DNA of 64,000 bases. Origin: Candidatus Saccharimonadales bacterium (GTDB taxonomy: Bacteria > Patescibacteriota > Saccharimonadia > Saccharimonadales > JAYRRP01). The stretch's first letter is position 1. Every line of letters starts with the position of its first letter. A program made the position numbers and the translations under genes. The notes beneath the pieces were generated by a model. The model worked only from the letters and a program-made list of their open reading frames with translations, ran no database searches and was not told the DNA's origin. Shown piece after piece: positions 3,064 through 51,800 of this stretch. The stretch spans positions 94,760 through 158,759 of the forward strand of contig JAYRIP010000003.1 in NCBI GenBank assembly GCA_041906765.1, read 5' to 3'.

Positions 3064-5103
3064 ATGGACATCGATAGCCCGTTAACGGCGTTGCAGGGGG
3101 TCGGGTCGGCATTGAGTGCAAAGTTTGCGCGCTTGGGTATTCGGACGGTACGTGATCTGCTAATGTATTATCCTCGCCGTTATGATGATTTCTCACACAC
3201 GGTAAAATTACGTGCCCTCAAACCTGGACAAGTAAGTACGAAAGCTGTAATTACTCAGGTGGTCGGGCGTTATGTCCGTGCTGGCCTGCATGTATGTGAA
3301 GCGCTCGTTAGTGATGATACCGGTAGTGCACGACTAGTTTGGTTTAATCAACCGTACCGTTTACACACTGTCAAAAAAAACCAGGAATATTTTATTGCCG
3401 GACAGTTTGGCTTAAAGAACAATCGCCTGGCGATCACAAACCCTTCAATTGAGCTGGCTAGCGAGATGCCGATTCACACAGCAAGAATTGTACCGATCTA
3501 TCGTGAGACAAAGGGCTTAACATCACCTCAGATACGTCGCACGTTACGTGCGGCCCAAGTTTTGATTCAGAATCTTCCGGAGACACTACCAGCGTGGATG
3601 GTGCGTCAATATAAGCTATTGCCCCGTGCTGAAGCGGTTTGGGCCGTCCATTTCCCCTCACGCACGGCACAACTGGAGATAGCACGTCGACGACTAGGTT
3701 TCGAAGAACTGTTAGAGCTTTGTCTGGCGGGTCTTATGAATCGACTTGATGTTGAATCTGTTGCTGCACGCAAAATACCATTCAATCAAACTCTAGCCCG
3801 CAAATTTGTATCTCATTTGCCGTTCCAGTTGACAGATGATCAACGCCGGGCAGTCTGGCAAATTTATCAGGATATGGATCGACCACGACCAATGAATCGG
3901 CTGGTCGAGGGAGATGTCGGGTCAGGAAAAACCGTTGTGGCAGCGATGGCTGCAGTGATGGCAATGGCTGAGGGTTTTCAAGTGGCTATGATGGCACCAA
4001 CTGAGCTGCTGGCGCGCCAACACGCGGATACGTTGCATACATTACTCAAACCGCTTGGGTATCATGAGTCGGTAAGCTTACTGGTCGGCGGTCTGAGCGC
4101 ATCAGCAAAGTTGTGCGCACACAAGGGAATAGCCGATGGAACCATTCGTCTTATAGTGGGTACTCACGCATTGGTACAGGAAAAGGTGGCCATGCCGGAC
4201 TTAGGGTTGGCAATTATTGACGAGCAGCATCGTTTTGGGGTAGATCAACGCCGAGCCTTGCAGGCAAAAGCCGGCACTGTACCGCATTTACTCAGTATGA
4301 CAGCAACTCCAATTCCGAGAAGTCTTGCACTAACAGTCTACGGTGAGCTTGAGGTGTCTATTTTAGCCATGAAGCCATCTAGTCGCAAACAAATAAAAAC
4401 TGCTCTCGTTACATTCAACGGGCGAGCAGATGTTTACAAAGAAATTGCCCAACAAGTCAGCAAAGGCAGACAGGCATTCGTGGTCTGCCCATCAATAGAA
4501 GCTGGTAACAATGCAACTGTGCGTCGTTCGGCACAGCAAACTTACCAAGAACTAACACAAGGGCTACTGGCTCGGTATAAAATTGGTTTGTTACATGGCA
4601 AGCTGAAGACAGCAGATAAGAACCAAATAATGCAACAGTTCGTGGATGGCAAATTGGATGTGCTGGTTGCAACTACTGTGATAGAGGTAGGGGTAGATGT
4701 GCCAAATGCGACATCAATGGTGATCGAGAATGCTGATTATTTTGGCTTGGCGCAGCTACATCAATTGCGAGGACGCATCGGGCGTGGTCACCACCAGGGT
4801 TATTGTTATTTGGTTACCAGTGATACTGGTTTACCCAGCCCACGATTAAATGCTATTGCTACTTCGACAGACGGGTTTAAGCTAGCAGAACTTGACCTAC
4901 GTCTCAGAGGCCCTGGGGCAATTTATGGAACACTACAGCACGGTCAACTGGATTTACGTATCGCAACTTTGACTGATGTCCACCTGATTGCTGAGGCTCG
5001 TTCGGCGGCTCATGAGTTTATCAATCGTGGACACACTCTGTTACAATATAAAGAACTGGGCACAAGGGTGACCCGCTTTCGCCAAATCACTACTTTGAAC
5101 TAA
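3064..5103 (+). CDS. recG: ATP-dependent DNA helicase RecG
   Basis: 679 aa. N-terminal wedge region plus SF2 helicase motifs GDVGSGKT, IIDEQHRFG, MTATPIPR and QLHQLRGRIGRG. Confidence 0.95.
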   Translation: MDIDSPLTALQGVGSALSAKFARLGIRTVRDLLMYYPRRYDDFSHTVKLRALKPGQVSTKAVITQVVGRYVRAGLHVCEALVSDDTGSARLVWFNQPYRLHTVKKNQEYFIAGQFGLKNNRLAITNPSIELASEMPIHTARIVPIYRETKGLTSPQIRRTLRAAQVLIQNLPETLPAWMVRQYKLLPRAEAVWAVHFPSRTAQLEIARRRLGFEELLELCLAGLMNRLDVESVAARKIPFNQTLARKFVSHLPFQLTDDQRRAVWQIYQDMDRPRPMNRLVEGDVGSGKTVVAAMAAVMAMAEGFQVAMMAPTELLARQHADTLHTLLKPLGYHESVSLLVGGLSASAKLCAHKGIADGTIRLIVGTHALVQEKVAMPDLGLAIIDEQHRFGVDQRRALQAKAGTVPHLLSMTATPIPRSLALTVYGELEVSILAMKPSSRKQIKTALVTFNGRADVYKEIAQQVSKGRQAFVVCPSIEAGNNATVRRSAQQTYQELTQGLLARYKIGLLHGKLKTADKNQIMQQFVDGKLDVLVATTVIEVGVDVPNATSMVIENADYFGLAQLHQLRGRIGRGHHQGYCYLVTSDTGLPSPRLNAIATSTDGFKLAELDLRLRGPGAIYGTLQHGQLDLRIATLTDVHLIAEARSAAHEFINRGHTLLQYKELGTRVTRFRQITTLN

Positions 5104-42604: not shown

Positions 42605-43258
42605 ATGCTGGAGCTTTTAATGGTGTTAGGCTTTGGGGCCATCGCAGTTCACGGCGCAAATGTACGCGATGAGGAGCTCACTGGTTTGCCTCGTAGAATT
42701 AGCGACAAACTGGGCCGTCTGTGGGATATCGCCCATCAAGGGATGCGGGAAAACCGTTTTTTGCGGGCTGAGAAAGCATTATTAACGATTCTTAAAATTG
42801 ACCAAAAGAACGCAGCGGCTTATAACCGGCTCGGTATCCTCTATGCCAAACAAAAAGAATACAAAGATGCCATCGACTGCTTCGAAATAGCCTCAAGTAT
42901 CGAGTCAACACCATCCAGCTTACATAACTTGGGTCTTATCTACTACGAGACCGAAAACTATGAAAAGGCTGCTGTAGCCTTTGAGCGCGCCATGTCACTC
43001 GAAGATAACCTGGCTGCCCGCCACATTGCTTACGCCAAAGTGCAAGAGAAGTTAAGCAATGACAAATTGATGTTACAACACCTCCAAAAAGCGGTGGAAC
43101 TAGAACCGAACCAAGAAACGTACACCTTATTACACAAAGCCTACGAAGGGCGCGGTATGGAACTTGAGGCTGATCAAATCCAGGAGAAGCTCAAGAAACT
43201 CGTGGTTCCTTCAGGCAAGCCCAAACGAGTGCTTCGACCAAAAAGAGTTGTCATTTAG
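42605..43258 (+). CDS. TPR-repeat protein with an N-terminal hydrophobic segment
   Basis: 217 aa. Repeated TPR-like units (AAAYNRLGILYAKQKEYKDAIDCFEIA, LHNLGLIYYETENYEKAAVAFERA). Confidence 0.75.
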   Translation: MLELLMVLGFGAIAVHGANVRDEELTGLPRRISDKLGRLWDIAHQGMRENRFLRAEKALLTILKIDQKNAAAYNRLGILYAKQKEYKDAIDCFEIASSIESTPSSLHNLGLIYYETENYEKAAVAFERAMSLEDNLAARHIAYAKVQEKLSNDKLMLQHLQKAVELEPNQETYTLLHKAYEGRGMELEADQIQEKLKKLVVPSGKPKRVLRPKRVVI

Positions 43259-43274
43259 AACGAGCTACCTTACA

Positions 43275-43303
43275 TTGCCTCTCTACCGGTGTTCTGCTAT
43301 TAT
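43275..43303 (+). promoter_or_regulatory. Possible promoter of the tRNA cluster
   Basis: TTGCCT (43275-43280), 17-nt spacer, TATTAT (43298-43303), about 15 nt upstream of tRNA-Thr. Confidence 0.4.
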
Positions 43304-43317
43304 TGAGCAGTCCTTTT

Positions 43318-43393
43318 GCCGACGTAGCTCAGCTGGTAGAGCAGCTGTTTTGTAAACAGCAGGTCGCAGGTTCGAGCCCTGTCGTCGGCTCCA
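43318..43393 (+). tRNA. tRNA-Thr(TGT), encoded CCA
   Basis: Hand fold: acceptor GCCGACG/CGTCGGC; anticodon stem GCTGT/ACAGC with loop TTTGTAA; T arm GCAGG-TTCGAGC-CCTGT. Confidence 0.9.
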
Positions 43394-43412
43394 GATTTTA
43401 TTCTGGCGTTTC

Positions 43413-43553
43413 GCAGGGATAGTGAAGCGGTCAAACACGGCAGACTGTAAATCTGCTGGCATTCGCCTTCGGGGTGAGAACTGCCGGTGGCAGTTTGCAA
43501 GGAAATTCCGCCAGCGGCGGATTTCGGGGTCGCCGAAGGTGACTCGAATCCCT
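43413..43553 (+). ncRNA. Aberrant tRNA-Tyr(GTA)-like element: an intact 5' two-thirds, a 74-nt structured insertion at the T-arm position, and no 3' acceptor strand or CCA
   Basis: Positions 43413-43470 parallel tRNA-Tyr, with the same acceptor 5' strand, D loop, anticodon loop CTGTAAA and variable hairpin, and with compensatory stem substitutions. These are followed by two GC hairpins and then TCGAATCCCT. See findings. Confidence 0.45.
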
Positions 43554-43574
43554 TAAAAACTTAATCATTCTTGT

Positions 43575-43660
43575 GCAGGGATACTCAAGCGGTCAACGAG
43601 GGCTGACTGTAAATCAGCTGGCATACGCCTACGGGGGTTCGAATCCCTCTCCCTGCACCA
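43575..43660 (+). tRNA. tRNA-Tyr(GTA), type II, encoded CCA
   Basis: Hand fold: acceptor GCAGGGA/TCCCTGC; anticodon stem GCTGA/TCAGC with loop CTGTAAA; variable arm TGGCATACGCCTAC; T arm GGGGG-TTCGAAT-CCCTC; discriminator A plus CCA. Confidence 0.9.
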
Positions 43661-43683
43661 GGGATAGAAGGATTGTGAACGCT
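43658..43683 (+). repeat. Direct repeat copy 1, starting at the CCA end of tRNA-Tyr
   Basis: CCAGGGATAGAAGGATTGTGAACGCT matches copy 2 at 23 of 26 positions. Confidence 0.7.
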
Positions 43684-43697
43684 CAAAATTTCTGAAT

Positions 43698-44141
43698 ATG
43701 AAACCGCATAAAGAAGCAGTATCAATTATTGTTAAACAGCCAAGTGGTGATTTTTTGGTTGTAAAACGTCCAGATGACCCAAATGACGATTTGGCAGGTG
43801 TTTGGGGTTTTCCTGCAGTTACACTTCGTGATGATGAAGTTGAAATTGATGGAGTAAAACGAGCTGCCAAAGACAAGCTCGGAATAGAAGTAGATATTAT
43901 TAAAAGACTTGGCGAAAGCACTCATGAGCGGCCAAGGCACATATTAAAACTTGCTGATTACGAAGTCTTCGTTACGAAAGGAACCCCAAAAGTTCCTCAA
44001 TCAGATGCCTCAGTTACACAGTACACAGAGTGTAAGTTTACCGACGACCCTACAATATTAGTTCCAGCTGCTAAAAAGGGTTCACAATGTACTCAAATAT
44101 TTTTGGAAGACTTAAAAATTGACTGGCAAAACACGAATTGA
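43698..44141 (+). CDS. Nudix-fold protein with a degenerate Nudix box
   Basis: 147 aa. GVWGFPAVTLRDDEVEIDGVKRAAKDKLGI aligns to the Nudix box pattern G.W.FPGG..E.GE....A..REL.EE.G, but the REL.EE acidic residues are replaced by RAAKDK. Confidence 0.6.
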   Translation: MKPHKEAVSIIVKQPSGDFLVVKRPDDPNDDLAGVWGFPAVTLRDDEVEIDGVKRAAKDKLGIEVDIIKRLGESTHERPRHILKLADYEVFVTKGTPKVPQSDASVTQYTECKFTDDPTILVPAAKKGSQCTQIFLEDLKIDWQNTN

Positions 44142-44189
44142 CATATAATTACCCATGTATAGCGTTATAACAGTGTTGATTACGCTATA

Positions 44190-44215
44190 CCAGAGATAGA
44201 AGGGTTGTGAACGTT
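44190..44215 (+). repeat. Direct repeat copy 2
   Basis: CCAGAGATAGAAGGGTTGTGAACGTT. It follows a 9-bp hairpin (GTATAGCGT 44157-44165 / ACGCTATAC 44182-44190). Confidence 0.7.
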
Positions 44216-44250
44216 AGAACTTTTCTTTGATTAACTTTTGTTATTATTAA

Positions 44251-44795
44251 TTGATGACACAACTTACACTAGTGACCGGCAATTTAGATAAACTTACCGA
44301 ATTGCAGGCCGTCTTTCCACCAGAAGTTGAGTTAACTCACAGAAAACTAGACATTGTCGAAATTCAGGGCGAACCCAGCGAAATTGTTATCGACAAACTG
44401 CAGAGAGCTTATGAAGCAGTGAAAGGTCCAGTAATAGTTGAGGACGTTTCTGCCGAACTTGCTTGCCACAACGGCTTGCCCGACCATATATTAAGTATTA
44501 CGAGAAAAAGCTGGGTAAAGATGCACTTTGGAAGCTTGCCCAACATGCTGAAGATAAGTCTGCAGCCATCCGTTGTACTATGGGTTTCTTTAATGGAAGT
44601 ACAAAGACTATTGAGGAGGGCTTGGTGCACGGTAAAGTGGTTTCGCCCCGAGGAGAAAATGGATTTGGTTTTGATTTCGTATTTGTCCCAGAAGGCCACA
44701 CCAGAACAACTGCCGAAATGTCACCATCAGAAAAAAACCAAATTAGCTGGCGAGGTCTAGCTGCAAGAGCGCTCGTCGCAAGGTTGTACGGTTAG
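44251..44795 (+). pseudogene. rdgB: Non-canonical purine NTP pyrophosphatase (HAM1/RdgB/ITPase family) interrupted by a 1-nt frameshift
   Basis: The N-terminal part (LVTGNLDKLTELQ...VEDVSAELACHNGLP) is in the frame of 44251. The C-terminal part (PYIKYYEKKLG...FGFDFVFVPEGHTRTTAEMSPSEKNQISWRG) is in the frame of 44463. The expected GLPGPYIK junction is restored by adding one G near 44482. Confidence 0.8.
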
Positions 44796-44911
44796 ACTGT
44801 GCGAAAAACTAATTTATTCCTAACAGCGTCTATCATCCTGCACCACGATTTTCACATCTGTTATATTGAATAGAGCATTAGTACGTTAAAACTAAACACG
44901 GGAAACTAAAG

Positions 44912-45403
44912 ATGGCAAATGTAAAAAAATGGATCCTCAAAAGTAAGAACAATTCTCTGCAACCTGGTGAAGAACTTCTAGCCGCTTTAGGTGTTGCGGT
45001 AAGAGATAAAGTCAAATATATGGCTGCTGGGTATCTTGGTGGTGCAGTTGGCGAAGTGACTGCGGTAAAAAAACTCAACGAGCAGAATGAAGCAGACTTG
45101 TCCCAAAAAGTACCGTCAATTGAAAAATACCCACCTGGTGCGGTAATCATTGGGTTAACCCCGGCTCGATTATTAATATATAAACTAAATTTCTTAGGCA
45201 GACCCAAGGAGTTAGGCGCCGATTATGCAAGAAATGAGGTTGTGAAAGCAGAAATGGAGAATAAAAAAATAAACTACTCTCTAGTTCTATTTTTCGCGGA
45301 TGGCGGGAAGATTACTCATGATGTTAGTCTGACGCAAGGAGATGAACTTAAACAGTTTGTAGGCCTTATCAATCAACACCTAAGCAGCGTTCCTACTTCG
45401 TAG
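44912..45403 (+). CDS. Hypothetical protein (possibly a bacterial PH-like fold)
   Basis: 163-aa ORF. The pattern GAVIIGLTPARLLIYKLN loosely resembles bacterial PH domains. No confident assignment. Confidence 0.5.
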   Translation: MANVKKWILKSKNNSLQPGEELLAALGVAVRDKVKYMAAGYLGGAVGEVTAVKKLNEQNEADLSQKVPSIEKYPPGAVIIGLTPARLLIYKLNFLGRPKELGADYARNEVVKAEMENKKINYSLVLFFADGGKITHDVSLTQGDELKQFVGLINQHLSSVPTS

Positions 45404-45455
45404 CATGCTGCATTAAATTTGCTCTAAGCTGTAATTTGTTGTTATTGTATACGCT

Positions 45456-45887
45456 ATGAAAAATATGGAAGCCTTCTTGGCGTATCGACACACAGGCGAG
45501 CAACCTGAAGATTTGGAAGTTCTATTAGGTAATACACGCGATGCTCTTGCTCGAGCTGGGGTTAATGCATACTGTACTTTTTTTGATGAGGATGAATTTC
45601 AAAATAAATCATTTGGTGCTCGCCAGATAATGGACCATGCTTTTGAAACCATAGAAGCTAAAGATATGCTCTTTGTACTGCAAACCTCAGAAAATAAAAG
45701 TGAAGGTATGCTTATGGAAGTCGGATATTGCAGAGCTAGAGGCATCCCAGTTGTTGTGGCTTCTAAGAGTGACGTGGAGCACACTTACCTACCTGACATG
45801 GCCGATATCGCAATTAGATGGAATGATCCAGAAGACTTACATCAACAAATTGAAGCTACAGATTTTTCAGCTTTAGCGCGAAGCTAA
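45456..45887 (+). CDS. Nucleoside 2-deoxyribosyltransferase-like (Rossmann-like) protein
   Basis: 143 aa. MLFVLQTSENKSEGMLMEVGYCRARGIPVVV resembles the conserved Glu/Gly segment of the family. Confidence 0.55.
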   Translation: MKNMEAFLAYRHTGEQPEDLEVLLGNTRDALARAGVNAYCTFFDEDEFQNKSFGARQIMDHAFETIEAKDMLFVLQTSENKSEGMLMEVGYCRARGIPVVVASKSDVEHTYLPDMADIAIRWNDPEDLHQQIEATDFSALARS

Positions 45888-45959
45888 TTCACAATATAAT
45901 TATCACGCTGCACGCACTTATGCTTGCATGTACAATTACGTTAAGAGATTATTATAGAT

Positions 45960-46469
45960 ATGGAGCGACCAGAGCAATTCAGAGATCCTCAACTTGATAC
46001 TTCTGGTGATATTATTGGGTTTTATCCACGCGAATTTTATACCTTTGATAACTTCTCGTCATTCCAAGTCGATTACGCTGGTAGAAGATGGCCAACATCG
46101 GAACATGCGTATCAAGCTTCTCATTTCTTTGATACAGCACCAGAGCTCGTAGAGGAGATTTTTAATGCACGTTCAGCACACGATGCTTACAAAATTGCCA
46201 AGACCAATGGTCACAAGGCTCCTGAAAATTGGGAAGACATCAAGGTAAGTATTATGTACGAGATATGCAAGCTTAAGCTATTCCAGAATCCATATGTACA
46301 ACATAAACTTGAGCTTAGTGGCGACCTTAATATAGTAGAAGATTCCCCCAAAGACAATTTCTGGGGCTGGGGAGCCAACCGCGATGGTCGTAACGAGCTT
46401 GGCAAAATTTGGATGCGATTAAGAGACGAAGTGCGTTCTGGCGCTATAGAGGTCGAGCAAGTAGAATAG
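45960..46469 (+). CDS. NADAR (YbiA/DUF1768) family protein
   Basis: 169 aa. Motifs FYTFDNFSSFQVDYAGRRWPTSEHAYQASHF and NFWGWGANRDGRNELGKIWMRLR match the family hallmarks. Confidence 0.8.
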   Translation: MERPEQFRDPQLDTSGDIIGFYPREFYTFDNFSSFQVDYAGRRWPTSEHAYQASHFFDTAPELVEEIFNARSAHDAYKIAKTNGHKAPENWEDIKVSIMYEICKLKLFQNPYVQHKLELSGDLNIVEDSPKDNFWGWGANRDGRNELGKIWMRLRDEVRSGAIEVEQVE

Positions 46470-46514
46470 TTCTAATAGCGTAGATCGCGCTGCATCACTG
46501 ACAGAAGGGTATGA

Positions 46515-46952
46515 ATGTTAGAAATTATGGCTAAAGACAACTGTCCATTTTGTAGTCTTAACGAACGTGTCCTAAAAGAAAATGACAAAGCAATATTATT
46601 CTTAAGTAATCCAAGAATAATGGAGGGACATTTTTTAATATCCCCAAAGCGTCACGTTGAAAAGCCATGGGAATTAACAAATGACGAAGTTTCATCAATC
46701 TTTAATTTAGTACGCCTCGTACAGGAGTTTATTACCGAGAATTTAACTGACGGGTGTGATGTACGCCAAAATTATCGTCCATTCCTTAAACAGAGCAAGC
46801 TGAAAGTAAACCATGTTCATTATCATGTCATGCCAAGGAACTTTGAGGACGAGTTGTATCAAAAAGTCGAGAAGCATGAAACTCAAATGTTTAAGGATTT
46901 AGGCAATAACGAGCACGAAAGAATTGCCAAGATGCTTGAAGAAGCCTTATAA
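46515..46952 (+). CDS. HIT-family nucleotide hydrolase/transferase
   Basis: 145 aa. Histidine triad HVHYHVMPR. N-terminal CPFC. Confidence 0.8.
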   Translation: MLEIMAKDNCPFCSLNERVLKENDKAILFLSNPRIMEGHFLISPKRHVEKPWELTNDEVSSIFNLVRLVQEFITENLTDGCDVRQNYRPFLKQSKLKVNHVHYHVMPRNFEDELYQKVEKHETQMFKDLGNNEHERIAKMLEEAL

Positions 46953-47295
46953 CATCCTCTTTTCCGATTTGCGATAGATAGAGGTATTATTGATAAGATG
47001 CAAATATCCCTTCGTTTTGCTTATGCTTGCAATAAATATTATATGGAAAGAAAATGGTTCATATGTCCGACTTAGAAAATGAACACATTTCAGCAGCAGA
47101 AGTTGAATCAGCGGCCTTGAATGAGACTGCGTTGCACGCACTGCAATGTGAACGTTGTGCCAGATTGATAATCCACTATGCTCAGACTCGTGAAAATACG
47201 CCACTAGAGCAATACCCCACTGCGGAGTAGTTTACCCACTTTGTACTCAGTGCTGCATCACGAGTAGACGAAAACGGTAATTATGTTATAGTAAC

Positions 47296-48030
47296 ATGAT
47301 TATGCCTGCTATAGAGACGTTCGGAGTTATTGGATGCGGAGAGTTTGGTAGGATAGCTGCAACTCATTTAGCTCCTCCAGAATCTGAAGTCCAAATATTC
47401 GATTCAAACCCTGAAGTAGATATACCATCAGCAGCTCGAAGAGTAGGATTTGAAGCCGTATCTCGTGCGGATGTAATTATGCTTGCTGTCCCTTTTGATT
47501 CATATGATATTGTGCTGCCTAGATTAACTGATTGTGTCAGACCAAATTCACTAATTGTTGATGTATGTTCTGTGAAAATTCTCCCCGAAGAAACTTTTGC
47601 GAGCTACCAGCTATTGGAGCGTGAAAACACACTCATGACCCATCCATTATTTGGCTCACAATCTATTGATGATAACTCGGTTGATAAACACATCGTTATT
47701 ACTCAGCAATCAGGAAATCTGACCACTGAACTCTTAGACATTTGGCAGAGTAGAGGCATAACTACTACCGTTATGACAGCTGAACAACATGACCGTGAAA
47801 TGGCTAAAGTTCATGCCCTAACTTTCTTCATTGGGAGAGCTTTACTCGAAATGGGCGTGGAATCGTCTGCTACAAATACACCATACTTTAACGAACTACT
47901 AGATCTTATTGAAGTTGAAAAGCATCATAGTTTGGAATTATTTAATACCATACAGCGTCACAACCCATTTGCAGCAGATATGCGACAAGAATTCATGAAT
48001 AAGTTACATGGTTTAGACGACCGAATATAA
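47296..48030 (+). CDS. Prephenate/arogenate dehydrogenase (TyrA) family protein
   Basis: 244 aa. Rossmann motif VIGCGEFGRIA, plus ADVIMLAVPF, DVCSVK, HPLFGSQS and EQHDREMAKVHALTFF. Confidence 0.7.
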   Translation: MIMPAIETFGVIGCGEFGRIAATHLAPPESEVQIFDSNPEVDIPSAARRVGFEAVSRADVIMLAVPFDSYDIVLPRLTDCVRPNSLIVDVCSVKILPEETFASYQLLERENTLMTHPLFGSQSIDDNSVDKHIVITQQSGNLTTELLDIWQSRGITTTVMTAEQHDREMAKVHALTFFIGRALLEMGVESSATNTPYFNELLDLIEVEKHHSLELFNTIQRHNPFAADMRQEFMNKLHGLDDRI

Positions 48031-48168
48031 AAAATTTTGAATAAGCAGGATAAATAATTACATTCTGGATTAAAATAGTTGCTAAGTGGTACAGTATGTG
48101 GCACTATATCTTATATTTGCATATATGCTTTTTACTTTTAGATAATAGAAGCTCACAAGGGGAGAATC

Positions 48169-48600
48169 ATGGAGGCAGAAGAAGCTGGTCGTCTTTCGCA
48201 GAATACAGCTGAAAGAATGCGGATTATCGCTGAATCTGCTCGTGAAATTGCCCAACGAGCGGTTGAAGCAGAATCACAGAAACGGGAAGAAGCAATAACT
48301 GCCACTGTTCACGCGCAAAGAGAAATAGTTGATGCAGCAATAACTAAAACTGCTGAAATGGGCAGGAATTCTGTAAACCATAAGTACTCAGAAAGAATCT
48401 CGGCGTCCCGAAATTCACGTGAGGAAATAGCAGCTATTGAAGATTTTGCCAATATTGTCACTGAAAGGTTACAGGCGGGGTTGCAAAAAGACGGATTTGA
48501 TGTCCATACTCGAAGTGAAGAAGTTATTGATTTTCGTGAGAGTGAGAGTTTTAACAGCCCTCCCGAGTATTATGATACGACTATCACTATTCAGTGGTAA
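48169..48600 (+). CDS. Hypothetical Glu-rich protein
   Basis: 143-aa ORF preceded by GGGGAG 5 nt upstream. No domain recognised. Confidence 0.5.
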   Translation: MEAEEAGRLSQNTAERMRIIAESAREIAQRAVEAESQKREEAITATVHAQREIVDAAITKTAEMGRNSVNHKYSERISASRNSREEIAAIEDFANIVTERLQAGLQKDGFDVHTRSEEVIDFRESESFNSPPEYYDTTITIQW

Positions 48601-48670
48601 TCATTATCATTGTTTATACTTGCTCAAAACAGCGTAACCACGAATATTAATCGGTTAATAACAGATACAT

Positions 48671-50125
48671 ATGAGTGAGACTCCGGCATACCCAGAAGGT
48701 TTAAATCACATACAGCTTGAAGCAGCAGTTTGTAATAATGATTTCGCGCAAGAAGCGCTTAAGTACTATTACGAATCTGTAAAAGCCCATGAAGAAGGTG
48801 AAGATTTTGGTGAGTTTAGGCAAGGAGAAAAGCCGAAAGACATCGAAGTAGCAATGACTCAATTAGGTCTGGTCTTAGATAAACCGGCTGTAGGAGCACA
48901 CTTTGCAACGCATCTACCACTTAGCAGACAGATGGACGTATATTTTGATGCTATCATGTCCCCTAATCAAGCAGGTGAAGCAGTTCTGTCCCAGTTAGGA
49001 AACATCAAATCAAAACTTGAACAATACCCCGGTGCCTACTGTAAGTTTTTGATCCGTGAAATTGCTGATTTGCACCAGACTGATACCGTTGATATTGATA
49101 AAAACACGAGAGACGTCTTAACTCTAGTAAGTGATAAGGTACTATTTCCAGACCCAGATAATTCTGAGCTCGATAGGTTGATTAACTACATTAATTATTA
49201 CGATGACTATAGTTATGATGACTATATGAACGTAAACTTGTCAAGCAGCAAGAACGAATTAAAAACAGCACTTAATAATGGCTTAATGAAAGCTGATCGA
49301 CCTGATCTTTTGGTGGCCACGACCACGCAAAATTTAGAGCAAGTACAAGAAACTGCCACCCAATTCCAGTTGGTTGGCAAGAGTGAGCACGATCAACTTA
49401 ATTGGCGAGAAAAGCATCGCTTGCGTAAAGTTGCTCAGTCAGTGTTAAATATCACACGGTACTCTGTTCATTATTGGGAATCCAGCGAGGGCCGAAGCAT
49501 GGAGGAAGAGTTCCTTATCGTAAAACCTACTTCTAAAATATTAACTGCAGTGCTTGCCTTAGCACTTGTTGACGATCAAAAGAAATTACAATCCGACCAC
49601 TTTAATCATTGGCAAGTAACACCACGGGGGTTTGCTCAAAAATCTGCCAGATCATTTATTGAATCACGACCAAAGTTCATCACAGAGGCTTATAAGCGCA
49701 ACTTTCCCGAAGAAGCCTTGAAAGGAGGAGCTGATCTTGAGGATGTATTGGCGCTCCAATCCCTCCCTACTTCACTCCAACAAACCTCTGCGGAAGAGTT
49801 TTATACGAGATTGGTAGAAGACGAGAAAAAACCACCAACCGATAAATTGCTGGCAGCTGTTAGTATGGCAAAATTTTTTAATGATGAGATGTCGGGTACG
49901 AAACAACAAGCCTACTGCATGACATTGTTAGACATGCTTCAGTCAGAGACTAGCAGGATTAATGAGCTAGATGGACTCGTGGCAAAATCACAACGTCACC
50001 AAGAGCTAAGCAAAGAACTAAACTCTATTATCAAACAAATTAACCAAATAGGAAAAGCCGATCCTCGCGACGCATTGTTAAAAAGAGTTGAGATAATAAA
50101 GGATCAGCTTGCATCGGGGTATTAG
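48671..50125 (+). CDS. Hypothetical protein (484 aa)
   Basis: Long uninterrupted ORF whose stop lies 2 nt before the MazG-like gene. No domain recognised. Confidence 0.65.
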   Translation: MSETPAYPEGLNHIQLEAAVCNNDFAQEALKYYYESVKAHEEGEDFGEFRQGEKPKDIEVAMTQLGLVLDKPAVGAHFATHLPLSRQMDVYFDAIMSPNQAGEAVLSQLGNIKSKLEQYPGAYCKFLIREIADLHQTDTVDIDKNTRDVLTLVSDKVLFPDPDNSELDRLINYINYYDDYSYDDYMNVNLSSSKNELKTALNNGLMKADRPDLLVATTTQNLEQVQETATQFQLVGKSEHDQLNWREKHRLRKVAQSVLNITRYSVHYWESSEGRSMEEEFLIVKPTSKILTAVLALALVDDQKKLQSDHFNHWQVTPRGFAQKSARSFIESRPKFITEAYKRNFPEEALKGGADLEDVLALQSLPTSLQQTSAEEFYTRLVEDEKKPPTDKLLAAVSMAKFFNDEMSGTKQQAYCMTLLDMLQSETSRINELDGLVAKSQRHQELSKELNSIIKQINQIGKADPRDALLKRVEIIKDQLASGY

Positions 50126-50127
50126 AA

Positions 50128-50433
50128 ATGAATAACCTAACCATTAATCAGTACCAAGACCTTATAAAACAGTTAGTTATTGAGCGTGGTTTTGATAAAG
50201 AAACGGTGCCTGAAGTCTTTACTTTATTAGTAGAAGAAATCGGCGAATTGGCTAAGGCTATACGGAAGCAGAATGGACAAAAGGTTGACAAGAAATCAAA
50301 ACATCATGAAGTAGAAGAGGAAGCTGCTGACGTTTTTTGGTTATTGCTCGACTTATGCAATAGACTGGAGATTGATCTTGGCAAGGCCTTTCGTGACAAA
50401 GAAATCAAGAATACAAAGCGAAAGTGGGAGTAG
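50128..50433 (+). CDS. MazG-like nucleotide pyrophosphohydrolase (small, all-alpha type)
   Basis: 101 aa. EEIGELAKAIRK ... EEEAADVFWLLLDLCNRLEIDL matches the paired EExxE/D metal-binding helices. Confidence 0.75.
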   Translation: MNNLTINQYQDLIKQLVIERGFDKETVPEVFTLLVEEIGELAKAIRKQNGQKVDKKSKHHEVEEEAADVFWLLLDLCNRLEIDLGKAFRDKEIKNTKRKWE

Positions 50434-50531
50434 ATAAAGCTCTACTCTACGATCTGTTTATCAAAGCAACAGGATCTAATGTATCTCTTGTCTCCTATCC
50501 GCTATAGTATGTGATAAACTTGCTGTGATAC

Positions 50532-50547
50532 GCCGTCGTAGCTCAGC
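50532..50547 (+). other. Orphan 16-nt tRNA 5' fragment
   Basis: GCCGTCGTAGCTCAGC matches the first 16 nt of tRNA-Thr(TGT) at 43318 (GCCGACGTAGCTCAGC) at 15 of 16 positions. No remainder of a tRNA follows. Confidence 0.5.
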
Positions 50548-50561
50548 AATGAACAATCATT

Positions 50562-51161
50562 ATGATTTCTAAAGAAGCTCTAAATCATTTATATACTGAA
50601 GAAAAATTATCAGTTGCGAAGGTTGCCAATGAATTAAACGTTTCTGAAGGTGCCGTTAATTGGTGGATAAATAAACACGGGATTATAAAAAGAAACAAAG
50701 TCGATGCGGCATATGTGCAGCACAATAAAAGTTTTCACATTAGTACAATAAACAGTCTAGAAGATATGTTTTTGATGGGTTTAGGCCTAGGGCTATATTG
50801 GGGCGAAGGAAATAAGACTAGTCCCTATAGTCTTAGATTAGGCAATACTGATCCTATAATGATAAAAATTTTCGTCAAGTTTCTAATAAACATTTGTGGC
50901 GTTAACTCCAATGAAATAAAATATGGTTTGCAGATATTTAATGACGCAAGTCCTAAAACTTGCTTACAGTATTGGATGAAGGAGTTAAATTGCGAGAGAA
51001 CAAAGTTTCACAACATTATATCTGTAATACCTCCGCAAGGTAAGGGCACTTACAAGCGAAAAAACAAAAAAGGAGTTCTTCAGATATATGTAAACAACAA
51101 ACGTCTTAAAAACTGGATATCCACAGAAATTAATAATTGTGCCGACATAGCTCAGTGGTAG
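50562..51161 (+). CDS. HTH plus LAGLIDADG-like putative homing endonuclease; the ORF runs 21 nt into tRNA-Thr(GGT)
   Basis: 199 aa. N-terminal HTH LSVAKVANELNVSEGAVNWWINKHGI, then a single LAGLIDADG-like motif FLMGLGLGLYWGEGNK followed by LRLGNTDPIMIKIFVKFL. The sequence is visibly more AT-rich than its neighbours. Confidence 0.5.
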   Translation: MISKEALNHLYTEEKLSVAKVANELNVSEGAVNWWINKHGIIKRNKVDAAYVQHNKSFHISTINSLEDMFLMGLGLGLYWGEGNKTSPYSLRLGNTDPIMIKIFVKFLINICGVNSNEIKYGLQIFNDASPKTCLQYWMKELNCERTKFHNIISVIPPQGKGTYKRKNKKGVLQIYVNNKRLKNWISTEINNCADIAQW

Positions 51162-51215
51162 AGCACCATCATGGTAAGATGGGGGTCTCGGGTTCAAGTC
51201 CCGATGTCGGCTCCA
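51141..51215 (+). tRNA. tRNA-Thr(GGT), encoded CCA
   Basis: Hand fold: acceptor GCCGACA/TGTCGGC; anticodon stem CCATC/GATGG with loop ATGGTAA; T arm TCGGG-TTCAAGT-CCCGA. Confidence 0.9.
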
Positions 51216-51238
51216 TTTTTACATAAGAGTTAAATATT

Positions 51239-51763
51239 ATGAAATTCGAAGCTTCCACTCATGCACTTGCTTATTTGGGCGATGAAGAACACTTTCCTGA
51301 TGATTTAGACATATTGGGCGAAGCATTAGAGTTCATAACAGATGCTGGGTGCGAAATTACTGTGCCGCGTATTTGGATACAAGAAGACATCATAAGTGTG
51401 TATGGACTGCGTGAAGTAGCCTTTCCTGGGATTAGTATTGATAGATTAAATCATGAATCTACCACTGATTTGGCGCACTTAGTGCTAGATAGGTGGAAAT
51501 TGCCAGATCAAATGCTAGCCTCACACGAAATTAACATACGTTCGGGCTTCATAGATTTAGAGCTTGACTTACTACAGAACGAAAGCCTACCAAAAGAAGT
51601 GCCTGAGTGCATGCATGGTGGCATAGCGGATGCCTTGAGTACCACCTACGGAGCGGTTGCGTTATTTCAAGGAGCACCACTCGTTGTAAGAGATGCTTCA
51701 GCTATCTATAACGAAATAATGATCCCTGCTGCTCGCAACAAAGATCAATATAGAAGTAATTAG
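51239..51763 (+). CDS. Hypothetical acidic protein
   Basis: 174-aa ORF between tRNA-Thr(GGT) and rpmG. No domain recognised. Confidence 0.5.
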   Translation: MKFEASTHALAYLGDEEHFPDDLDILGEALEFITDAGCEITVPRIWIQEDIISVYGLREVAFPGISIDRLNHESTTDLAHLVLDRWKLPDQMLASHEINIRSGFIDLELDLLQNESLPKEVPECMHGGIADALSTTYGAVALFQGAPLVVRDASAIYNEIMIPAARNKDQYRSN

Positions 51764-51800
51764 GTTTGTAAAAAGCTTATAATCTGTTAAGATAAACTTT

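Follow-up and report, generated by a model that had tools for sequence, protein, structure and literature searches.

Known arrangements of partial and interrupted tRNA genes

The tyrT operon of Escherichia coli yields rtT RNA and contains repeated pieces of the 3' part of tRNA-Tyr. Introns interrupt other tRNA genes, among them group I introns in the anticodon loop in bacteria and, in archaea, non-canonical introns at positions that include the T loop. In tDNA islands an intact tRNA gene is accompanied by a cognate partial copy, and 159 of the 3,919 islands recorded by Islander are of the 5'-fragment type (PMC4383910). Foreign DNA can also be acquired by homology-facilitated illegitimate recombination (HFIR), in which one end of the incoming linear DNA is joined by homology and the other end illegitimately (PMC3240628). 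Natural competence has been shown for Saccharibacteria, which take DNA into their genomes through homologous recombination (PMC10633639).

The locus described here lies in a 64-kb stretch of DNA, hereafter the window, among genes for ribosomal proteins, rpoA, trpS, a pseudouridine synthase, holB and a TPR protein, all on one strand. The TPR protein encoded directly upstream of the element matches thousands of homologs, 75-95% identical, and where a source is named it is Candidatus Saccharimonadales or Saccharibacteria; the window is part of a Saccharibacteria (TM7, Patescibacteria) chromosome. A phage origin was rejected, as 50,697 phage records gave generic tRNA matches only. We think it likely that the element is a recent tRNA pseudogene remnant at a junction of horizontal transfer and that the foreign block brought in a replacement tRNA-Tyr. 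This explanation is an ordinary one, and the locus is a fresh instance of an already known phenomenon.

Structure of the tRNA-Tyr-like element

ARAGORN and Rfam locate tRNA-Thr(TGT) at 43318-43393 (70.8 bits in Rfam) and an intact tRNA-Tyr(GTA) at 43575-43660 (55 bits), both on the + strand, and the latter is the sole tRNA-Tyr gene of the window. An earlier note, made from the sequence, had described a second tRNA-Tyr-like sequence nested between these two genes, and every sequence feature that it listed was found in place. Over 62 nt, positions 43413-43474 form a direct repeat (85% identity) with the start of the intact gene; they cover the acceptor 5' strand, the D arm, the anticodon arm, the variable arm and bases 1-4 of the T stem. 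This part, which we call the stump, differs from the intact gene in the D stem (GTG/CAC versus CTC/GAG), the anticodon stem (GCAGA/TCTGC versus GCTGA/TCAGC) and the variable arm. It is preceded by a 19-nt spacer, GATTTTATTCTGGCGTTTC, at 43394-43412.

The stump is followed by filler at 43475-43530 with two GC hairpins, CTGCC-GGT-GGCAG at 43481-43493 and CCGCC-AGC-GGCGG at 43508-43520, and with the second copy of an octamer, TTCGGGGT, that occurs at 43468-43475 and 43523-43530. Next comes CGCCGAAGGTGACTCGAATCCCT at 43531-43553, a degenerate variable-arm end and T-arm-like piece that agrees with 43626-43648 of the intact gene at 18 of 23 positions; its last 10 nt, the T-loop-like TCGAATCCCT at 43544-43553, match tRNA-Tyr exactly. 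By local alignment this piece is closer to tRNA-Tyr than dinucleotide shuffles are (p = 0.002). When an nhmmer profile of the family's tRNA-Tyr genes was used, the stump matched profile positions 1-62 only (E = 1.3e-16). Judged by these alignments, the tRNA resemblance of the element is true homology and not chance.

What the element lacks is a 3' end. An A/T-rich leader of the intact tRNA-Tyr, 21 nt long (43554-43574), occupies the place expected of the resident 3' acceptor strand and CCA; 3' of the T-arm-like piece there is no TCCCTGC or CCA, and TAAAAAC is found there instead. A scan of the 64 kb for the last 25 nt of tRNA-Tyr, tolerating up to three mismatches, returned a single site, that in the intact gene.

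Tests for a functional or intron-containing tRNA

The Rfam tRNA model (RF00005) gave 24.4 bits for 43413-43489, below its gathering threshold of 29, and the alignment took in the 5' part only, skipped the T arm and closed the acceptor spuriously with two mismatches. At the gathering threshold Rfam found nothing at the stump. ARAGORN made no call on the element at its default settings, with introns allowed, or at thresholds of 80% and 70%; a minus-strand "tRNA-Ser with 234-nt intron" reported at 70% is an artefact stretching across the two real tRNAs. A 7-bp acceptor stem with a discriminator and a CCA or CCA-addition site cannot be formed, with TAAAAAC in place of TCCCTGC, and computational excision of 43475-43543 as an intron joins GGGG to TCGAATCCCT and leaves the acceptor 3' strand still missing. 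The idea that the element is a tRNA with an unconventional insertion is thus excluded by the missing strand, the lack of an ARAGORN call and the low Rfam score. The locus resembles intron-containing tRNAs in that a tRNA-like sequence is broken by extra nucleotides at the T loop, but its 3' exon would be incomplete, having neither T-stem closure nor acceptor 3' strand nor CCA, and a group I intron would need far more than the 69-74 nt present.

A cmscan search of 43250-43720 against all 4,227 Rfam families (release 15) at E <= 10 returned the sub-threshold tRNA and weak, chance-level matches only. The rtT family was not matched over this range, and the precedent that the note had seen in rtT finds no counterpart there. 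The two cases have in common a part of tRNA-Tyr within a tRNA operon transcript, from which a processed by-product RNA is conceivable. They differ in that the window has a 5' fragment upstream of the gene, whereas rtT has 3' repeats downstream, and in that the window element is not conserved in relatives.

Comparison with related genomes

Eighty related genomic loci around the TPR gene were fetched and scanned for tRNAs. The usual order in these loci is tRNA-Thr(TGT), with tRNA-Tyr(GTA) close by, followed in most of them by tRNA-Thr(GGT). The nearest sequenced relative, here L001, encodes an adjacent TPR protein that is 95% identical. Its complete Thr-Tyr spacer is the 19-mer GATTTTGTTCTGGCGTTTC, which has a single mismatch to 43394-43412 of the window (18 of 19 positions; A at 43400 in the window, G in L001) and abuts an intact tRNA-Tyr that agrees with 43413-43474 at every one of its first 62 positions. 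Where the window has the A/T-rich leader, L001 has CTCCCTGCACCA. The blastn alignment of L001 with the window stops exactly at 43474 and restarts at 51780, and between these points there is only tRNA-level resemblance, in the two tRNAs downstream of the stump. Identity between the two genomes is 75/76 for tRNA-Thr(TGT) and 62/62 for the stump; it is 77/86 for the intact tRNA-Tyr and 65/75 for tRNA-Thr(GGT).

Because the L001 spacer and the first 62 nt of its gene agree with the window up to the very point where the alignment ends, the element, compared in this way, is the resident tRNA-Tyr gene, still where it lay in the ancestor and truncated after base 62. It is a tRNA pseudogene in the usual sense of orthology to a functional gene combined with a disabling lesion: flanks, spacer and the 62/62 identity tie it to the L001 gene, after which T-arm integrity and the 3' acceptor strand are lost. 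Of the three possibilities raised earlier, a decaying duplicate comes nearest, although the stump is not a duplicate; the original gene is still in place, and the intact copy downstream is the newcomer.

The same comparison bears on two further proposals of the note. The orthologous Thr-Tyr spacer could be compared in 53 related genomes with both flanking tRNAs, where it measures 1-564 nt, and a 5' tRNA-Tyr fragment was present in none of them. Conservation of the element finds no support, as it is missing from every relative examined, L001 included. The stem differences between the two copies had been taken as compensatory changes pointing to selection on the structure of the element. Such differences do exist. 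Since the stump is identical over 62 of 62 positions to the functional tRNA-Tyr of L001, they are the differences between two functional alleles of separate lineages, and two such alleles standing side by side give no evidence of selection on the stump.

The age of the truncation may be judged from the flanking TPR gene, whose third codon positions are 44.5% identical to those of L001, so that neutral sites are saturated. The stump shows no substitution relative to the functional tRNA-Tyr of L001. If the stump is neutral, its unchanged state at this level of divergence would make the truncation very recent relative to the split of the L001 and window lineages; purifying selection would also give zero substitutions. 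A recent truncation fits with the available copies of the element, all of which represent one clone: contigs of six sequencing runs in Logan match the window at 100% identity over as much as 7.8 kb.

The incoming tRNA genes and the foreign block

The stump has the D arm that is the norm of the family, TAGTGAAGCGGTCAAACAC (GTG/CAC), found in 51 of 56 tRNA-Tyr genes. The D arm of the intact copy, TACTCAAGCGGTCAACGAG (CTC/GAG), is shared with three of the 56 only, those of L063, L075 and L072, and the intact gene is closer to L063 and L075 (81/86) than to L001. The tRNA-Thr(GGT) at 51141-51215 (+ strand) shows, against that of L001, paired changes in the acceptor stem as well as in the anticodon stem; the L001 copy is at most 1 nt from several relatives, and the best match of the window copy among the 80 loci is 67/75. 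By their sequences, both tRNA genes are outliers for the lineage and foreign in character, and tRNA-Thr(GGT) was probably imported with the block.

The block as a whole extends from 43475 to about 51779 (~8.3 kb) and stands in place of 424 nt of L001, with a GC content of 0.39-0.41 from about 44000 onwards, compared with 0.45-0.47 in the flanks. Its main part, 43661-51140 on the + strand, is a set of accessory genes that is missing in L001 and was delimited by the synteny break, the GC content and the genes themselves; within this break the distance between the two tRNAs is 424 nt in L001 and 7.65 kb in the window. The genes encode a NUDIX protein, a frameshifted Ham1, a nucleoside deoxyribosyltransferase, NADAR, HIT and MazG proteins, a prephenate dehydrogenase and several unknown proteins. 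No integrase or recombinase domain was found in 43475-51779, and the block proteins had no relatives in viral contigs. At the right end, 51216-51779 (+ strand) contains a 174-aa ORF with no Pfam match where L001 has 30 nt, and the DNA alignment with L001 resumes immediately after it.

The NUDIX gene was used to search for a donor. Its homologs are rare: 47 were found, whereas the TPR gene on the flank has over 7,800. Those at 78-85% identity occur in different contexts, with no donor-like sequence among them; the best non-self homolog, at 85% identity, has a different tRNA context. In L095, which belongs to another lineage, a NUDIX gene again lies directly 3' of tRNA-Tyr.

Sequence between the stump and the intact gene

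The 100 nt from the end of the stump to the intact gene, filler included, had no homolog in 88 related loci (blastn-short), in the long Thr-Tyr spacers of other lineages when these were aligned with them, or in viral contigs (0 matches). Scanning JGI metagenomes for the two-hairpin pattern returned 28 matches, none homologous to the filler: 27 are chance occurrences in high-GC DNA (GC 0.50-0.73), and the remaining one is an unrelated AT-rich locus (L109). Comparison with direct and inverted copies of the neighbouring tRNAs was significant for the T-arm piece at 43531-43553 alone, and not for 43475-43530 on either strand. The hairpin CTGCCGGTGGCAG was likened to hairpins beside tRNA-Tyr in L065 and L029, and this alignment was not significant (p = 0.12).

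We take these 100 nt, with the two GC hairpins and the degenerate T-arm piece, to be junction DNA or spacer DNA of the donor, and they may be divided in two ways. Foreign DNA may start at 43475 and include its own upstream spacer with a degenerate tRNA remnant, which takes one event. Given the exact 10-nt TCGAATCCCT at 43544-43553, it is also possible that resident bases 1-62 and 65-74 were both kept with a 69-nt insertion between them, and that foreign DNA begins at 43554; this requires two lesions, the insertion and a separate 3' truncation. Neither division accounts for the duplicated octamer TTCGGGGT.

Predicted folding and transcription

The note had proposed that pairing between the two sides of the filler closes the hairpins into a three-way junction. 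The long-range complementarity was found, between 43463-43472 and 43533-43542; the model is at odds with itself in that the variable hairpin GGC-N4-GCC and the long-range stem both use bases 43465-43467 and so cannot coexist. The 181-nt stretch has a minimum-energy fold of -66.9 kcal/mol (z = -3.3 against shuffles), and at -33.6 kcal/mol the three-way junction is disfavoured. In the predicted ensemble, pair probabilities are 0.01 for the D stem, 0.04 for the anticodon stem, 0.02 for hairpin 1 and 0.01 for the long-range stem. The A/T helix suggested to close the whole element reaches just 0.02-0.05, and hairpin 2 is the only proposed helix with a high value (0.96), the others being at or below 0.05. 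As modelled, the stability of the stretch comes from three ordinary GC hairpins. When the precursor 43394-43660 is folded, the intact tRNA closes its acceptor stem with a probability of about 1. The stump's GCAGGGA, considered as a competitor for the 3' strand of this stem, is not predicted to act as one, and the stump is predicted neither to hinder nor to help the folding of the real tRNA.

A promoter-like site on the + strand (43275-43303; TTGCCT-17-TATTAT with a TG extension, a simple consensus match) lies upstream of tRNA-Thr and is probably the promoter of the whole transcript of tRNA-Thr, remnant and tRNA-Tyr. Since a simple consensus scan found no promoter-like + strand site between 43394 and 43574, the intact tRNA-Tyr is probably read through from the tRNA-Thr promoter and the stump transcribed as a spacer. 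Release of this spacer by RNase P/Z processing is a reasonable inference and carries no implication of function. A conserved structured ncRNA, another of the earlier suggestions, is unsupported, given relatives that lack the element, a filler that lacks homologs and the disfavoured three-way junction.

Origin of the remnant

We propose that the window lineage recently gained the foreign DNA now found at 43475 to ~51779 in exchange for its resident sequence between the T arm of tRNA-Tyr and a point just beyond tRNA-Thr(GGT). The incoming tRNA-Tyr and tRNA-Thr(GGT) would have taken over the job of the resident genes, leaving the resident tRNA-Tyr as a promoter-proximal stump that has no 3' acceptor strand. 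Stump and filler would presumably be transcribed as the 181-nt inter-tRNA spacer, excised by RNase P and 3' processing and then degraded, in which case they would have no function. The most economical route would be a single event with the right side anchored by homology in the conserved genes past 51780. The left junction within the T arm of tRNA-Tyr would be illegitimate, which together would amount to HFIR. This mechanism fits the locus because the left junction is abrupt and inside a tRNA and the right end lies beside conserved genes. As in HFIR by its definition (PMC3240628), foreign DNA replaces resident DNA, with conserved homologous genes on one side and an abrupt non-homologous transition on the other, and the host belongs to a naturally competent phylum (PMC10633639). 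HFIR is recognised by comparison with the donor, which places one junction inside donor-recipient homology and the other at a short microhomology; here the mechanism is deduced from the recipient sequence.

Other explanations could be envisaged for the same layout. Like the Islander tDNA islands (PMC4383910), the locus combines an intact tRNA gene with a cognate partial copy in one orientation, the 5' fragment being upstream and broken in the T-stem/T-loop region; compositionally deviant foreign DNA adjoins, and the function of the disrupted gene is restored by incoming DNA. It could be the scar of a site-specific integration, a reading that we regard as unlikely. An island with the 5' part of tRNA-Tyr in its attP would have entered at the T-loop region and displaced the host 5' fragment upstream, an intact gene being rebuilt with its 5' part from the island and its 3' part from the host; the body of the island would later have been deleted to 100 nt, and the 7.6 kb downstream would be unrelated hot-spot content. 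The 62-nt fragment, 100 nt upstream of the gene and like it on the + strand, has the place, orientation and break point expected of a 5'-fragment island, and comparable repeats occur in relatives: in L063 a 3' fragment of tRNA-Tyr follows the gene at a distance of 755 nt, in L029 the 3' end of tRNA-Tyr is repeated over 22 nt from the identical TCGAATCCC onwards, and in L093 the 3' end of a tRNA-Arg is repeated. Islander islands, however, measure 2-200 kb and have a tyrosine integrase between fragment and tDNA, whereas the interval here (43475-43574) is 100 nt long, below the 2-kb minimum, and contains no ORF, and the adjacent 8 kb, up to 51779, has no integrase or recombinase domain either. 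The foreign bulk lies downstream of the intact gene and not between the copies, and the incoming DNA seems to bring a whole tRNA-Tyr and tRNA-Thr, not a partial attP copy. A scar would also take three events (integration, near-total deletion and downstream replacement including the xenologous tRNA-Thr(GGT)), as against one for the replacement proposed above.

We consider it highly improbable that stump and hairpins have been exapted as a structured RNA, kept as a processed spacer RNA of ~180 nt or as a module for folding or processing of the tRNA-Tyr precursor, with rtT from the E. coli operon as a loose parallel. The stability of the 181-nt stretch relative to shuffles and the unsubstituted stump would agree with such a role, and transcription would be obligatory should the intact tRNA-Tyr lack its own promoter. 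Ordinary GC hairpins (three) explain the stability, though, and the proposed junction lies far above the minimum-energy fold, with all but one of its helices hardly populated. Nor is the stump predicted to assist or disturb the real tRNA as it folds. None of the described Rfam families reaches threshold at the element, the filler is without homologs in related loci, JGI metagenomes and viral contigs, and even the nearest relative lacks the element. We give a very slight chance to co-option of the stump-hairpin spacer, as a stable RNA of ~180 nt freed from the Thr-Tyr precursor or as a cis module tuning both read-through and processing of what would be the sole tRNA-Tyr in a reduced Patescibacteria genome; if it were true, the perfect preservation of the stump would reflect selection and not recency. 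Hardly credible is an assembly artefact, that is, a metagenome chimera in which tRNA-Thr, spacer and the 5' part of tRNA-Tyr from an L001-like strain were joined to another strain via shared tRNA k-mers. Many assemblies do break at these tRNAs, and the Logan contigs end inside tRNA-Thr on the left and begin at 43445 on the right, so that 43365-43444 is supported by the window's own assembly alone. Against a chimera, independent Logan assemblies from two samples (L085 and L086) cross the junction from 43445 at 100% identity and fuse 30 nt of the resident-type tRNA-Tyr (43445-43474) to the filler, so the junction exists in real reads, and the spacer carries the lineage's own variant, A at 43400 instead of the G of L001.

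Implications

If the element is, as we propose, the remnant of a resident gene beside its foreign replacement, it raises no new question of RNA biology. It does offer a correction: orthologous tRNA alleles juxtaposed by horizontal transfer can mimic compensatory change, and such change is no proof of selection on the broken copy. For the Saccharimonadales, the tRNA cluster Thr(TGT)-Tyr-Thr(GGT) is a hot spot of accessory DNA in the order. The locus represents a small and clean case of xenologous replacement of essential tRNA genes, that for Tyr and probably that for Thr(GGT), in the reduced genome of a naturally competent member of the Saccharibacteria.

Gene content of the low-GC block

From tRNA-Tyr to the conserved genes past tRNA-Thr(GGT), the window carries a block of about 8 kb with a GC content of 0.39-0.41 (43661-51779), which the relative L001 lacks. 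The block is enriched in genes for nucleotide house-cleaning and salvage (NUDIX, Ham1/ITPase, nucleoside 2-deoxyribosyltransferase, NADAR, HIT and MazG) and also encodes a prephenate dehydrogenase. Several of its proteins, one of them 484 aa long, had no Pfam match, and no integrase was found within the block.

The Ham1/ITPase gene (44251-44795) appears to be frameshifted, as the Pfam domain Ham1p_like is split over two overlapping ORFs, with domain positions 1-78 in 44251-44760 and positions 80-185 in 44463-44795. Since independent Logan assemblies carry the same sequence across this region, the frameshift is probably not an assembly error. The gene could be a pseudogene or be subject to programmed frameshifting.

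The tRNA-Thr(GGT) of the window (51141-51215) is a sequence outlier. It is identical to its L001 counterpart at 65 of 75 positions and to the best match among 80 related loci at 67 of 75, and its acceptor and anticodon stems carry paired changes. By contrast, tRNA-Thr(TGT) shows 75/76 identity between the window and L001. Judged by sequence, tRNA-Thr(GGT) is probably a xenolog that came in with the block.

The tRNA cluster in related genomes

Many independent assemblies stop inside or just ahead of tRNA-Thr(TGT), directly past the TPR gene, including the related loci L004, L005, L013, L041 and L062 and Logan contigs L081-L084. These shared ends suggest that assemblies repeatedly break at the tRNA cluster, owing to shared tRNA k-mers and strain-variable downstream content.

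Immediately 5' of tRNA genes in several relatives we observed a conserved leader motif, consisting of GGGAAAAGAGCAG, a variable GC hairpin and GATGAGAAAAACCGTnAGGTTTGTCTCAT. It occurs in the Thr-Tyr spacers of L010, L048 and L066, and also in L063, where tRNA-Thr and tRNA-Tyr each have a copy in front of them (3264-3350 and 3510-3588). Rfam at the gathering threshold assigned no family to the motif in L063; it could act as a promoter or leader, or could be an RNA motif not yet described. Long Thr-Tyr spacers of a second family (95-263 nt; L002, L003, L012, L031, L036, L042 and L055) have in common the blocks GCATTTGCGAGAGTAT, GTGAGGG and AGAAGGTGTTACAATA, followed by a hairpin. The block AGAAGGTGTTACAATA resembles an extended -10 element. 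These spacers may supply tRNA-Tyr with a separate promoter in those lineages.

In L065, the region downstream of tRNA-Tyr (3468-3640) contains a long terminator-like hairpin. Its tip, CTGCCAGTGGCAG, is nearly identical to the window hairpin at 43481-43493, a likeness that is not significant (p = 0.12). After the L065 hairpin comes a minus-strand sequence resembling a tRNA 3' end, TGGAGGCGAAAGAGGGATTCGAAC, for which neither ARAGORN nor Rfam made a call. L029 has a truncated version of this arrangement.

Fragments and 3'-end repeats of tRNA genes were also observed. In L063, another Saccharimonadales genome, an intact tRNA-Tyr is followed by a 205-aa ORF and a tRNA-Tyr 3' fragment (3589-4497). 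The fragment comprises 69 nt (4429-4497; profile positions 18-86) and has the D-arm strand of the other allele type. This arrangement matches the classic signature of an island border, although the copies are only 755 nt apart and there is no integrase. In L029 (3413-3625) the last 22 nt of tRNA-Tyr, beginning TCGAATCCC, are repeated about 105 nt downstream, while in L093 (93-360) the 3' end of tRNA-Arg(TCT), CTCCCTCCCGGGGTACCA, is repeated about 170 nt downstream. Both inserts are very small and bounded by tRNA 3'-end repeats. Elements that target tRNA genes, in miniature or eroded form, may be common across the order Saccharimonadales.
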